Shown: positions 17,616 to 25,033, counted from the first letter of the stretch. The stretch: DNA of 32,000 nt from Nitrosococcus oceani ATCC 19707 (GCF_000012805.1 NC_007484.1:300001-332000); one strand, 5' to 3'. The notes: a model not told the origin generated them from the sequence alone. Translations and numbers: made by a program.

Positions 17616-17652
17616 AAAACCGATTGACAATCGGTTTTTAATCTTGTAATAA
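17616..17652 (+). promoter_or_regulatory. near-consensus sigma-70 promoter overlapped by a 23-bp perfect palindrome (candidate BlaI-like operator)
   Basis: AAAACCGATTGACAATCGGTTTT (17616-17638) has 11-bp arms. The -35 TTGACA (17624-17629) sits at its centre, followed by a 17-nt spacer and the -10 TAATAA (17647-17652). ATG 17679 is preceded by AAAGGTGG. Confidence 0.65.
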
Positions 17653-17678
17653 TAATTTTTTTTAAAGGTGGCAGGGCG

Positions 17679-18086
17679 ATGCTGTCGATTCGGTCTTCCT
17701 ATCTCGGTGAGCTGGAAATTGCCGTTCTAGAATATCTATGGTCCGAGGGCGCCATGGATGCTAAGGATGTGCATCAAGGTATTGGCACCCAGCGGGGCAT
17801 TTCCTTAAATACCGTTCAATCGGCTTTGGAGCGGTTATATCGAAAAAAGCTGCTGAGCCGGGAGAAAGTCCGCCATGCTTATGTTTATGCGCCTGCGGTG
17901 CGGCGGGAAGAATTGATGGCCCAGCTCATGGGGCAAGTTGCGCATGTTTTATCCGCGGGTAAGGGCTACGATTTGCTCTCGACCTTTGTGGATTTTGCCG
18001 CTCGGGTGGATGAGCATAGCCTGGATCGGCTGGAGCAGTTGATTGCGGAGCGCCGCAGACAGCAGCAAGAGGATGATCCGCCATGA
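17679..18086 (+). CDS. BlaI/MecI/CopY-family winged-helix repressor (cysteine-free)
   Basis: LGELEIAVLEYLWSEGAMDAKDVHQGI...SLNTVQSALERLYRKKLLSREKVRHAYVYAP is the Penicillinase_R pattern. It lacks the C-terminal CxCx4CxC motif of CopY and has no Cys at all. Confidence 0.9.
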   Translation: MLSIRSSYLGELEIAVLEYLWSEGAMDAKDVHQGIGTQRGISLNTVQSALERLYRKKLLSREKVRHAYVYAPAVRREELMAQLMGQVAHVLSAGKGYDLLSTFVDFAARVDEHSLDRLEQLIAERRRQQQEDDPP

Positions 18087-21924: not shown

Positions 21925-21931
21925 AGCCGCC

Positions 21932-24900
21932 ATGATCGCCAAAATAATTCAATGGTCCCTGAAGCAACCCTTGCTGGTTCTCCTGAGTGCCGCCGCCCTC
22001 TTAGGGTGGGGAAGCATTGAGGCCCTGCGAATGCCTGTAGATGTCTTCCCCGATCTGACCACGCCCCGAGTAACGGTTGTGGTTGAGGCCCATGGCATGG
22101 CTCCGGAAGAGGTGGAAGTTCTCATCACTTTCCCTCTGGAGACAGCGTTTAATAGCGCCATGGGCGTACGGCGGGTGCGCTCTTCAAGCGGTGTTGGCTT
22201 TGCCGTCATCACGGTTGAATTTGACTGGGGAATGGGTATTTATCGAGCCCGGCAAATTGTGGCTGAGAAACTGCAATTAGTGCGTGGCGCGTTGCCGCCC
22301 GATATTCCGCCGCCAGTGATGCAGCCAGTGACTTCCATCATGGGCGAGATTATGTTCATTGCCTTGACCTCCGAGAGGCACAGCGCTATGGAACTCAAGA
22401 CCCAAGCGGACTGGGTAGTGCGCCACCGCTTGCTGGCGGTTCCAGGTGTAGCTCAGGTCATTCCCATCGGCGGCGATACCAAACAATACCAGGTCATACT
22501 CAAACCCGAGCGCCTGGTTGCCTACGATATTGCCATGGATGAAGTGGTGGCGGCCTTACGGGAGACTAACCAGAATATCTCGGCGGGGTTTTATGTGGAA
22601 GGAGGTCAGGAGCACCTTATTCATGGGATAGGCCGGGTTCAGCGCCTTGAAGATATCCGCGAAACCCTTATCGGCCAGCGTGGCGGTCAGTCCGTGTTGG
22701 TGCGCCATGTGGCGGAAGTGGCTTTGGGCCCGGCCCCCAAACGGGGCACCGGCGCTCTGAATGGGGAAGCGGCGGTAATTATTGGAATCCAGAAGCAGCC
22801 CGGCACGAATACGTTGGCCCTGACGGCGCGTCTGGATCAAGTTTTGGCCGAGCTACAGGCCTCCTTGCCGTCAGGGATGATCTTCAACACTCATATTTTC
22901 CGGCAGGCGGATTTTATCACCGTTTCTATCAATAATTTGCTGGCGGCCCTACGGGATGGGGCGATTCTGGTGGCCGCGATCGTCTTTGCCTTTCTGATGA
23001 GCACCCGGGCCAGTGTGATTACCTTGCTTGCTGTGCCCCTTTCTTTGGTAACCGTTATTCTTGTGATGAAGGCCCTGGGGACAACTTTCAACACCATGAC
23101 TTTGGGGGGGATGACCATTGCCCTGGGGGCTTTGGTGGATGATGCCATTATCGTGATGGAAAATATTGTCCGCCGCCTGCGGGAAAATCAGCAGCGGGAT
23201 AAGGGACAACGACGCTCCACCGGCAAAGTGGTCTTTGAAGCTACCCGAGAAATTCAGGGTTCTATTGTCTTTGCCACCTTGATCATTGTCTTAGTTTTTC
23301 TACCCCTGGTTTTTCTCTCTGGGGTAGAAGGTCGTCTGATGCAGCCCCTCGGGGTGGCCTACGTCGTTTCTCTGGCCGCCTCCTTGCTGGTGGCTATTAC
23401 CGTGACTCCGGTACTCAGCGCCTTACTTTTGCCTCAAGCTCGGATTGTCCAGGCGAGCCGGGAGATCTCGCTAGCGCGAAGTCTCAAAAGGCACTATGAG
23501 CGGCTCCTTGCAGCGACTATTACCCAGTGGAAAGTTATTACCTTGATTGCAATGACTGCTTTGGCTGCTGCGCTGATAACTCTTGCTGGAGTGGGGCAGG
23601 TGCTTTTGCCGAGCTTTAATGAAGGTAGCCTCACAATCAACACGATGACATTGCCAGGGACTTCCTTGGAACAATCTGATCGGCTGGGGCAAAGAGTGGA
23701 GAAAATCCTGCTGAGCTATCCGGAGGTGGTGTCTACGGCCCGGCGGACCGGCCGGGCCGAGCTCGACCCCAACGCCCAGGCCATCTATGCTTCCGAGATC
23801 GATGTGAATTTGAGGCAGGGAGAGCGGAGCAAGGAAGCTTTTTTGGCGGCCTTGCGAGCGGATTTAGCCCGCCTTCCTGGGATGCAAATCAACATTGGCC
23901 AGCCCATTTCACACCGCATCGATCACATGCTTTCGGGGACCCGCGCCAATATTGCGGTCAAGATCTTCGGGCCTGACCTCTATGAATTACGCCGGCTAGG
24001 ACAACAGGTTAAGGCCGTGATGGCAGGAGTGCCCGGTGTGGTGGACCTAGCGGTACAGCAACAGACGGATATTCCCTTTCTGACAATTAGGTTTAAACGC
24101 CAGGCCATTGCTCGCCATGGCCTGCGGGTGCAAGAGGTGGCCGAGGCGGTGAAAGGGGCTTTTTATGGGCAGCCCGTTTCCAAAATCCTGGAAGGACGGG
24201 CCAACTTTGACTTGGTCGTGCGCTATGATCCGAGAGTCAAAGCTGATCTAGAAGCAGTCCGTGCCACCTTGATGACCACCGGAAGCGGCGCTCATTTGCC
24301 TCTCCATGCACTAGCAGAGATCCGCAAAGATCGGAGTCCTAATTTCATCAGCCGGGAAGATGTTCAGCGTAAGATGGTGGTCATGGCCAATGTGGCGGGC
24401 CGGGATCTCGTCAGTGCCGTCGAGGAGATACAACAGGGTGTCCGTCAGAGTTTGTCACTGCCTGCAGGTTACCATGTTGAATATGGTGGTCAATTCAAGA
24501 GCGCCAAAGCAGCTTTCCGCACTTTATCAATCGTCAGCGTCCTAGTTATTCTGGGCATCTTTCTATTGTTATTTATGGCGTTCAATTCAGCACGAGATGC
24601 TTTCCTGGTGATGCTAAATCTGCCCCTTGCCCTGATAGGTGGGGTCGTGGGTGTTTACTTCTCCGGGGGAATACTTTCGGTGGCTTCGATCATTGGCTTT
24701 ATTACCCTGTTTGGGATTGCGACCCGTAATGGAGTCATGATGATTGCCCATATCCATCACTTGGTAGAGCGGGAGAGGGTGCGGGATCCCATGACGGCGG
24801 TGATCCGGGGGGCCAAGGAGCGTCTTATTCCCATTCTTATGACAGCCTTAGCCACGGCGCTTGCCCTCATTCCCTTGGCGTTGGGCGCGGGAGAGCCGGG

Positions 24901-25033
24901 GAGTGAGATCCAAGCCCCTATGGCCATGGTGATCCTCTTCGGTCTTTTGACTTCAACGGCGCTTAATATGATGGTAGTCCCGGCTCTCTATCTGCGTTTT
25001 GGCGTGGCGAGTCAAAAGTTGAGGCATCCATGA
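21932..25033 (+). CDS. CusA/CzcA-family (HME-type) RND efflux pump
   Basis: MIAKIIQWSLKQPLLVLL...MPVDVFPDLTTPRVTVVVEAHGMAPEEVE is the CzcA/CusA-family N-terminus. About 12 TM segments and two large periplasmic loops. ATG 21932 lies 8 nt after the adaptor stop. The track start 21800 overlaps the adaptor gene and is rejected. Confidence 0.95.
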   Translation: MIAKIIQWSLKQPLLVLLSAAALLGWGSIEALRMPVDVFPDLTTPRVTVVVEAHGMAPEEVEVLITFPLETAFNSAMGVRRVRSSSGVGFAVITVEFDWGMGIYRARQIVAEKLQLVRGALPPDIPPPVMQPVTSIMGEIMFIALTSERHSAMELKTQADWVVRHRLLAVPGVAQVIPIGGDTKQYQVILKPERLVAYDIAMDEVVAALRETNQNISAGFYVEGGQEHLIHGIGRVQRLEDIRETLIGQRGGQSVLVRHVAEVALGPAPKRGTGALNGEAAVIIGIQKQPGTNTLALTARLDQVLAELQASLPSGMIFNTHIFRQADFITVSINNLLAALRDGAILVAAIVFAFLMSTRASVITLLAVPLSLVTVILVMKALGTTFNTMTLGGMTIALGALVDDAIIVMENIVRRLRENQQRDKGQRRSTGKVVFEATREIQGSIVFATLIIVLVFLPLVFLSGVEGRLMQPLGVAYVVSLAASLLVAITVTPVLSALLLPQARIVQASREISLARSLKRHYERLLAATITQWKVITLIAMTALAAALITLAGVGQVLLPSFNEGSLTINTMTLPGTSLEQSDRLGQRVEKILLSYPEVVSTARRTGRAELDPNAQAIYASEIDVNLRQGERSKEAFLAALRADLARLPGMQINIGQPISHRIDHMLSGTRANIAVKIFGPDLYELRRLGQQVKAVMAGVPGVVDLAVQQQTDIPFLTIRFKRQAIARHGLRVQEVAEAVKGAFYGQPVSKILEGRANFDLVVRYDPRVKADLEAVRATLMTTGSGAHLPLHALAEIRKDRSPNFISREDVQRKMVVMANVAGRDLVSAVEEIQQGVRQSLSLPAGYHVEYGGQFKSAKAAFRTLSIVSVLVILGIFLLLFMAFNSARDAFLVMLNLPLALIGGVVGVYFSGGILSVASIIGFITLFGIATRNGVMMIAHIHHLVERERVRDPMTAVIRGAKERLIPILMTALATALALIPLALGAGEPGSEIQAPMAMVILFGLLTSTALNMMVVPALYLRFGVASQKLRHP

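Follow-up and report, generated by a model that had tools for sequence, protein, structure and literature searches.

A putative BlaI/BlaR1-type proteolytic switch linked to a heavy-metal-family RND exporter in Nitrosococcus oceani

Introduction

The established regulators of heavy-metal efflux (HME) pumps of the resistance-nodulation-division (RND) family are the two-component systems CusRS and CzcRS and the extracytoplasmic function (ECF) sigma factor system CnrYXH, with metal sensing in the periplasm (PMC3637150, PMC10127602). Regulation by proteolysis of a repressor is known from other systems. BlaR1 directly cleaves BlaI, and its loop between helices 2 and 3 (EL1) is the signalling element, linking the sensor domain with both helix 3 and the protease (PMC9834060). 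In Synechocystis sp. PCC 6803, the BlaI-like repressor PetR is degraded in a copper-dependent manner by PetP, an M48/M56 protease with four transmembrane (TM) segments and without a sensor domain (Garcia-Canas et al. 2021; bioRxiv 10.1101/2020.07.31.226407; PMC7896320). The TM2-TM3 loop of PetP was proposed by its authors as the copper site, with two methionines as ligands (bioRxiv 10.1101/2020.07.31.226407). Here we describe a locus of five genes from Nitrosococcus oceani ATCC 19707, in which a repressor-protease pair of this kind precedes the three genes of an HME-family RND exporter. The locus is part of a stretch of 32,000 nucleotides (NC_007484.1:300001-332000), which we call the window and from the first letter of which all coordinates are counted.

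Judging from the sequence, it is fairly probable that the tripartite exporter is driven by a module of the BlaI/BlaR1 (PetR/PetP) type, in which regulated proteolysis responds to metal, by the full mechanism given in the Discussion. Gene content, conserved synteny, operators and motifs are directly established, together with the predicted fold and topology of the protease. Since the PetR/PetP precedent is known, the principle is not new; new are the RND-efflux target, the loop motif and the operator. A previous interpretation of this DNA (the sequence-only reading) stated that neither of the sensing modes known for this repressor family applies, and that the protease must read the inducer. Sensing by the protease is supported, while PetR/PetP had been overlooked as a third mode.

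In a full-text literature search for BlaI, BlaR1 or M56 in combination with RND, czc or metal efflux, with incomplete coverage of the literature, the wiring found here was not described, and papers on copper stress in Xanthomonas and cobalt resistance in Geobacter make no mention of BlaI or M56. Within this coverage, the earlier statement that its author knew of no characterised example for RND metal efflux is borne out, with PetRP as the nearest system. One passage of a review places a 'blaR1' beside nickel and cobalt resistance genes in a nickel-resistant Shewanella and counts it as an antibiotic-resistance gene; this gene may be the same module, misread.

Results

Organisation of the locus

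The five genes (Table 1) are all on the plus strand, and the junctions described in the sequence-only reading can be read directly: stop and start codons overlap as ATGA at 18083 and 20380, with gaps of 3 nt (19082–19084) and 7 nt (21925–21931) at the other two boundaries. The gene families assigned there to the repressor and the three pump components are confirmed by profile matches to Penicillinase_R, OEP, HlyD_D23/RND_mfp/CzcB, ACR_tran and TIGR00914. OEP, RND_mfp/CzcB and ACR_tran are matched by consecutive genes, as in a tripartite RND system. The membrane-fusion protein (MFP) gene starts at ATG 20380, where the listed open reading frame (ORF) begins at TTG 20374, and the RND gene starts at ATG 21932, within a longer ORF beginning at 21800. 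The packing of the genes fits the single operon that had been proposed, with the qualification that a second conserved operator is located at the boundary of the protease and pump genes, where a plasmid homologue has its own -35 element.

Table 1. Genes and regulatory elements of the efflux locus, in window coordinates.
Feature	Position	Strand	Basis or remark
Repressor gene, BlaI/MecI/CopY-family winged-helix protein, 135 aa, no Cys	17679-18086	+	profile searches, PDB match
Protease gene, 4-TM M48/M56 zinc metalloprotease, 332 aa	18083-19081	+	profile searches, AlphaFold2 (AF2) fold
Outer-membrane factor (OMF) gene, TolC/OEP family, 432 aa	19085-20383	+	profile searches
MFP gene, lipoprotein membrane-fusion protein, 514 aa	20380-21924	+	profile searches, orthologue alignment
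RND permease gene, CusA/CzcA family (TIGR00914), 1033 aa	21932-25033	+	profile searches
Operator O1, perfect 11-1-11 palindrome AAAACCGATTG-a-CAATCGGTTTT, 100% complementary	17616-17638	.	centre = -35 hexamer
Promoter P1, sigma-70-like: TTGACA, 18 nt, AATAAT, upstream TG; 11/12 matches	17624-17653	+	
Operator O2, AAAACCGATTATCTATCGGTTTT	19117-19139	.	OMF codons 11-19, signal-peptide n-region (KKPIIYRFY); 1,501 bp from O1
Codons of the candidate metal-sensing loop, protease residues 82-98 (HC...C..H)	18326-18376	+	computed from gene start 18083

Conservation of the module

With an alignment of 22 protease sequences, 80 genome loci and 80 metagenome loci were fetched, and all ORFs in them were scored against the five window proteins. 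The order repressor-protease-(OMF)-MFP-RND is shared by close relatives in Polyangia, Myxococcales, Bradymonadales, Sandaracinaceae metagenome-assembled genomes (MAGs) and many metagenome contigs. Three look-ups of exact proteins, with independent gene calls and Pfam labels, agree on this order; one of these loci is from an unclassified Pseudomonadota MAG. In every locus the protease gene overlapping the repressor gene is kept. The RND proteins of the relatives score 1,200–1,800 bits against the window pump, compared with 484 bits for CusA; they are true orthologues, and the module thus moves as a whole.

Among plasmids, tblastn gave one match, the 530-kb conjugative Pseudomonas aeruginosa plasmid CP109756.1, on which the same five genes are present according to the PGAP annotation. 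The plasmid is from a human isolate, and the module (nucleotides 400204–407362, locus L166) adjoins an IS256-like element and genes for a relaxase, replication and partition. When 1.84 billion representative sequences were searched with the protease profile, 1,206 hits were obtained at E <= 1e-30 (about 1,200 clusters at 50% identity), nearly all of them 320–335 residues long.

Linkage to efflux was evaluated by dividing the proteases according to the loop motif described below, with at least 2.5 kb of downstream DNA required. Efflux genes are located 3' of 17 out of 20 motif-positive proteases and of 3 out of 75 motif-negative ones (mostly actinobacterial), for which the Fisher test gives p = 4.5e-13, a value that overstates the significance because the loci are not phylogenetically independent. 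The operon looks acquired, since its G+C content (0.56–0.59) exceeds that of the housekeeping genes at its flanks (0.44–0.49), and this could be taken to favour a chance juxtaposition or an annotation artefact peculiar to this genome. Such an explanation, to which we attach a negligible probability, is refuted by the comparative data: co-occurrence was checked across unrelated taxa, and other phyla, like the plasmid, share the five-gene order as well as the motifs and the two operators.

Operators and promoter

The pattern ACCGA-N7-TCGGT is found twice in the window, in O1 and O2, where 0.13 matches are expected. The consensus of the operators is A-N-A-CCGA-N7-TCGG-T-N-T, with TTGAC(R) at the centre of O1. 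Counting the window and 24 fetched loci, 25 sequences have a site of the O1 type 5' of the repressor gene, 26 sites in all since L109 contributes two. A boundary site of the O2 type is present in the window and 23 fetched loci, 24 sequences in total, and those of L030 and L123 are without the A/T flanks. P1 is the only strong sigma-70-like promoter in the region and its TTGACA forms the centre of O1, while a Shine-Dalgarno-like stretch, AAGGTGG, lies ahead of the repressor start codon, ATG 17679. The sequence-only reading placed the start of the system at 17616, the first base of O1; only this operator was implicit there, and O2 and the loop motif are additions.

O2 mostly starts about 40–50 nt past the stop codon of the protease gene, with a range of 7 to 101. 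In 19 of the 22 boundary sites examined (the window included), it is in phase 0 with an ATG 30–42 nt upstream, so that its codons specify K-P-x-x-x-R-F in the n-region of the signal peptide of the first pump gene product. The same nucleotides thus serve twice in these 19 of 22 sequences, as a DNA palindrome and as the determinant of n-region residues.

An internal promoter at O2 of the window was considered and rejected, as the centre, TTATCT, is a poor -35 and no -10 is present at the right spacing. It is also disfavoured because a transcript from there would lose the conserved ATG and the n-region of the signal peptide. The 3' end of the protease gene was scanned for promoter-like sites, and none were found. 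In the plasmid CP109756.1, where both operators are centred on TTGACG, O2 is located in an intergenic gap of 140 nt and carries its own -35; by these features it is a predicted second regulated promoter. In N. oceani, O2 is likely to be a transcriptional roadblock at the boundary between regulator and pump genes, or a looping partner of O1.

In L030, a more distant myxococcal repressor-protease pair is also followed by MFP and RND genes; here the repressor start codon is preceded, at a distance of 10 nt, by a different palindrome, CTACGAC-aatgc-GTCGTAG (~9190–9210). Operators of differing specificity thus seem to have evolved in the family at large.

The protease and its candidate sensor loop

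The active site of the protease is formed by HERAH (residues 192–196) and Glu232, of which H192, E193, H196 and E232 are invariant in the 22 aligned sequences, at 22–70% identity to the window protein. The further invariant residues are H82, C83, C94 and H97, in the TM2-TM3 loop, and H320 and E324, in the C-terminal tail. This loop is about 28 residues long and has the pattern DHC...C..H, with five to six histidines in most orthologues. Among the 147 best family representatives, 140 contain DHCxxH(D/G)(D/G)xHxHLCxxH with five to six histidines and 146 have the C-terminal HxxxE. The predicted periplasmic loop of the N. oceani protein is DHCQPAGVDFSYHCLLHP (residues 81–98) and its tail is LHQLTE. 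The window protein is 100% identical to a protein of N. oceani AFC27, whose sources call it 'peptidase, M48 family' or 'M56 family metallopeptidase'.

Lysine and arginine counts are 4.4 for loop 1 and 4.3 after segment 3, versus 1.0 for the TM2-TM3 loop and 0.2 for the tail. The positive-inside rule thus predicts a cytoplasmic protease domain and a periplasmic position of loop and tail. The AF2 model of the protease has a pLDDT of 84.7 and a pTM of 0.83, and its top matches in the PDB are the cryo-EM structures of Staphylococcus aureus BlaR1 (entries 8EXT, 8EXQ and 8EXS; probability 1.0, with a TM-score of only about 0.4), followed by Ste24. As EL1 of BlaR1 is the loop between helices 2 and 3, the His/Cys loop is placed where the signal enters the characterised relative.

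No transpeptidase or beta-lactamase domain was matched in the 332 residues in the Pfam profile search, and a penicillin-binding domain is absent because the chain stops 13 residues past the last TM helix. The previous description of the protein as one with no sensor domain is therefore correct for a penicillin-binding domain; it does not hold otherwise, given the invariance of the loop (H82-C83...C94-x2-H97) and of H320 and E324 in the tail. The protease probably detects the metal itself, via the His/Cys-rich outer loop. A more far-reaching proposal is that the 332-residue protein is a self-contained transmembrane metal receptor, in which the His/Cys loop, clamped with the HHxxE tail, takes up a metal ion and by allostery activates the cytoplasmic zinc protease for destruction of the repressor. 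Heavy-metal RND pumps would then have regulators of a third class, acting by proteolysis, with more than 1,000 sequence clusters, present on clinical conjugative plasmids and with an auxiliary operator in signal-peptide codons. For this proposal as a whole we see the balance as even.

The same switch could also respond to a signal in the cytoplasm, with metal bound at the protease domain (for example at C235/D236) or by the repressor-protease complex, and with the periplasmic cysteines as a structural disulfide. C235 and D236 are invariant or nearly so in the alignment and stand beside the third zinc ligand, E232, in AAEQACDEEAA. For PetP, copper acts when put into extracts and the copper site is not established, and pairs of cysteines in the periplasm are usually oxidised. 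However, a merely structural role hardly accounts for a loop with five to six histidines that is conserved in over 140 representatives, and this loop is homologous to the signalling element of BlaR1; Cus- and Czc-type pumps, moreover, remove periplasmic metal, and CusS, CzcS and CnrX sense the periplasm. We consider cytoplasmic sensing unlikely and favour the periplasmic loop as the metal site.

The repressor

The repressor belongs to the Penicillinase_R family (PF03965), with an E-value of 5.5e-23 and 81.9 bits against a cut-off of 22.6, over profile positions 1–114 of 115. Its best match in the PDB is 2G9W, the entry for Mycobacterium tuberculosis Rv1846c (E 1.6e-12), and BlaI and MecI are matched as well. 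When aligned with S. aureus BlaI, the residues D105-F106 (VD105/F106AAR, with the slash marking the bond) are opposite N101-F102, which we take to be the scissile bond of BlaI. They are part of AFVD[LF], the most conserved C-terminal stretch of the repressor orthologues; cyanobacterial PetR-like proteins have AAFAD at this position.

As had been noted before, the window repressor contains no cysteine at all. Its orthologues have no conserved one, and sensing of the CopY type is therefore excluded: the CxCx4CxC motif is absent, and the match to TIGR02698, at 44 bits, is far below the cut-off of 121.95. CopY-type repressors do share the Pfam family of the window protein, to which this weak match adds, and one may imagine that the repressor is the sensor, directly or via a chaperone as in CopY, with a protease that only removes repressor already released or serves some unrelated housekeeping function. 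Such an arrangement is very improbable in view of the missing cysteines and of the translationally coupled protease gene, which is never lost from the loci.

The exporter

The outer-membrane factor matches OEP with an E-value of 8.9e-22. The membrane-fusion protein matches HlyD_D23, RND_mfp and CzcB/NccB, except for its N-terminal ~170 residues (within 20380–20900), which have no Pfam match. In 14 orthologues, residues H64 and H131 and the lipobox cysteine C18 are invariant. All 14 are lipoproteins, with HGH(A/S/V/G)H as the C-terminus of 13 and HGNSH as that of the remaining one; in the window protein it is HGHAH (H510, H512 and H514; codons 21895–21921). Several orthologues, such as those of L099 and L005, have very long His-rich linkers after the lipid-carrying cysteine.

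The permease matches ACR_tran with an E-value of 4.9e-260 and TIGR00914 with 802 bits (cut-off 701.45), the runner-up model being the multidrug RND_permease_2, with 552 bits for a cut-off of 1250. Among proteins of solved structure, CusA (484 bits) and ZneA (462 bits) are the best matches, about 190 bits over any drug pump. Its fourth TM segment reads ALGALVDDAIIVMEN, which in 12 orthologues is A(L/V)G(A/E)LVDDA(I/V)(I/V)(D/V)VEN, and HRIDHM is conserved in the orthologues at the position of CusA M672. The candidate ligands are dominated by histidine, so a divalent ion of borderline character (Zn, Ni, Co, Cd or Cu(II)) is favoured over Cu(I) or Ag(I). The plasmid homologue of the module (CP109756.1) drives a pump that bears DFG-DGA-VEN, and one relative sits beside a CusB-HMBD-CusF system. 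In L082 (17040–21011), proteins of 135 and 435 residues, both without a Pfam match, directly follow the five-gene module; next come a CusB-type adaptor, to which HMBD and CusF domains are fused, and another RND permease.

Genomic context

The operon is flanked by housekeeping genes on the opposite strand, pepA and holC upstream and sspB, sspA and petCBA downstream. Flanking direct repeats, a tRNA gene or an Rfam family were sought as island boundaries of the operon, and none were found. Histidine kinase, response regulator or ECF sigma genes do not adjoin it, the nearest response regulator gene (5219–5893) being 12 kb away. The region looks mosaic, with G+C values from 0.40 to 0.59 in 1-kb windows; the high-GC blocks are an operon for an ABC sugar-type transporter (about 7968–12124) and the efflux operon. 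On the minus strand, an overlapping pair of small genes (12416–13049) resembles a toxin-antitoxin pair, with a RelE-like protein (weak, sub-threshold) and an HTH_3/MqsA-like antitoxin. Also on this strand, an ORF of 371 residues without a Pfam match (14145–15260) is located between this pair and holC, in a stretch of low G+C content (0.41–0.44).

Discussion

The core of the sequence-only reading, a proteolytic switch wired to an HME-type RND pump with the membrane protease reading the signal, is supported by the synteny, the operators, the candidate site in the loop, the lack of a metal site in the repressor and the His-rich adaptor. The full mechanism, in which the binding of DNA and of metal, the cleavage, the kind of metal and the role of O2 are all inferred, would run as follows. 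In the absence of inducer, dimers of the winged-helix repressor would sit on both ACCGA-N7-TCGGT operators. Occupancy of O1 would cover the -35 of the only good promoter, while O2, as a roadblock or looping partner, would keep basal expression of sensor and repressor from spilling into the pump genes. The protease, with four TM segments, would have its HExxH...E domain in the cytoplasm and would expose the TM2-TM3 loop and the short LHHxxE tail to the periplasm. Once a borderline metal ion (Zn, Ni, Co, Cd or Cu) had bound to the loop, a signal would pass through TM3 to the protease domain. The activated protease would then cut the repressor near AFVD/F, O1 and O2 would be vacated, and the OMF-MFP-RND pump would be made.

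Several findings weigh against this mechanism. The protease was originally described as M56 (BlaR1-like); its AF2 model is matched best by BlaR1, and by Pfam thresholds the protein is M48 (PF01435, 32.8 bits, cut-off 20.3), not M56 (PF05569, 24.5 bits, under the cut-off of 31). The loop of the N. oceani clade, DHCQPAGVDFSYHCLLH, is a poorer, degenerate version, with three histidines rather than five to six. This loop is also the low-confidence part of the AF2 model (pLDDT of about 50), and its two cysteines may simply be a disulfide. To the phylogenetic dependence of the loci compared are added three motif-positive loci without a pump (L006, L016 and L096). TonB-dependent receptor genes adjoin the pairs in L011 (4040–6136, motif-negative), L016 (4633–6819) and L096 (10594–13047), and the module is therefore not exclusive to efflux. 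As for the pump, its place in the CusA/CzcA family holds by membership in TIGR00914, while the signatures of both namesakes are missing. Orthology to CusA (HME4) was rejected, since M573, M623 and M672, which we take to be the CusA methionine triad, align with N, A and H (chain offset +7). The CzcA type was rejected because the fourth TM segment has no DFG-DGA, DFG-DGA-VEN being the signature that Nies gave for HME1 and HME2 (CzcA, CnrA and NccA), as quoted in PMC3637150. With neither the site residues of CusA nor the TM4 motif of CzcA, 'metal' rests on the family score and the His-rich features.

The loci L011, L016 and L096 suggest that a branch of the family controls uptake instead of efflux. 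In L011 and L016, the receptor gene is divergent and the palindrome is present in the shared intergenic region. In L006 (10861–13184), two co-oriented ORFs (389 and 385 residues) without Pfam match come after the pair, and the group is surrounded by three transposase genes.

The missing signatures could also mean that the signal is not a metal (envelope, redox or thiol stress, or an organic toxin) and that the pump exports something besides a metal cation. The VDDAI of the fourth TM segment resembles that of drug pumps; the two invariant periplasmic cysteines could serve as a redox switch, and the relatives next to TonB-dependent receptors point the same way. However, the TIGR00914 score is far over those of the multidrug RND models, with CusA and ZneA as the best solved matches, and histidines abound in the HGHxH tail and linkers of the CzcB/NccB-like adaptor and in the protease loop. 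In addition, a homologous module drives a DFG-DGA-VEN pump, and another lies beside CusB-HMBD-CusF. A signal other than a metal is, all told, rather improbable.

If the metal-responsive mechanism is true, a widespread proteolytic alternative would stand beside two-component and ECF-sigma systems, as a new class of sensor in bacterial metal homeostasis. The PetP-type proteases would gain a tractable and far more explicit candidate metal site (DHCxxH..HxHLCxxH). Annotation is also affected: genes of the module are labelled 'BlaR1' and 'BlaI', and 'blaR1' near metal-resistance genes has been listed among antibiotic-resistance genes. With its defined operator and promoter, the system is also compact enough to be a candidate metal biosensor. 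In N. oceani, which depends on copper to oxidise ammonia, the operon would be a likely acquired metal-tolerance island.

Comparison with known systems

The regulators CusRS, CzcRS and CnrYXH are proteins unrelated to those described here, and phosphotransfer or release of an anti-sigma factor would be replaced by the irreversible proteolysis of a repressor. CopY and TcrY of Firmicutes share the Pfam family PF03965 with our repressor and CopY-type control also applies to metal export genes, but CopY senses Cu(I) itself by CxCx4CxC and needs no protease, and the cop box, TACAnnTGTA, is unlike the operator found here.

The BlaR1/BlaI and MecR1/MecI systems of Staphylococcus and Bacillus are similar to ours in the fold family of the repressor, in the adjacent gene pair and in providing the best structural match of the protease. 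They differ in that the protease described here has no penicillin-binding sensor domain, that the repressor gene comes first, and that the predicted target is a pump instead of a beta-lactamase or PBP2a. BlaI and MecI operators are TACA/TGTA dyads, unlike ACCGA-N7-TCGGT. N. oceani is Gram-negative, and the loop therefore faces the periplasm, unlike the extracellular loop of BlaR1. M. tuberculosis BlaI (Rv1846c), although the best sequence match of the repressor, is from the actinobacterial branch. Its partner BlaR (Rv1845c) presumably also lacks a penicillin-binding domain; the M56 genes of this branch in the fetched loci have no His/Cys loop and no adjacent pump.

The closest likeness is to PetR/PetP. 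In both systems the repressor gene is overlapped (by ATGA at 18083 in the window) by a gene for an M48/M56 protease with four TM segments and a cytoplasmic HExxH but without a sensor domain at the C-terminus, and its TM2-TM3 loop is the proposed reader of the metal signal; the repressor is without the CopY cysteines, and the AAFxD stretch is shared with cyanobacterial PetR-like proteins. Similarity in sequence is low, with about 37 bits between the window protease and cyanobacterial PetP-like proteins. The PetP loop has 14 residues with two conserved methionines (MGxxGxM in cyanobacterial PetP-like proteins), compared with the ~28 residues, DHC...C..H and the HHxxE tail of the family described here. 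The PetR operator is GACN5GTC, compared with ACCGA-N7-TCGGT, present twice. Finally, the PetRP regulon consists of petE, petJ and two small genes, while the predicted target of the N. oceani pair is an HME-family RND exporter.

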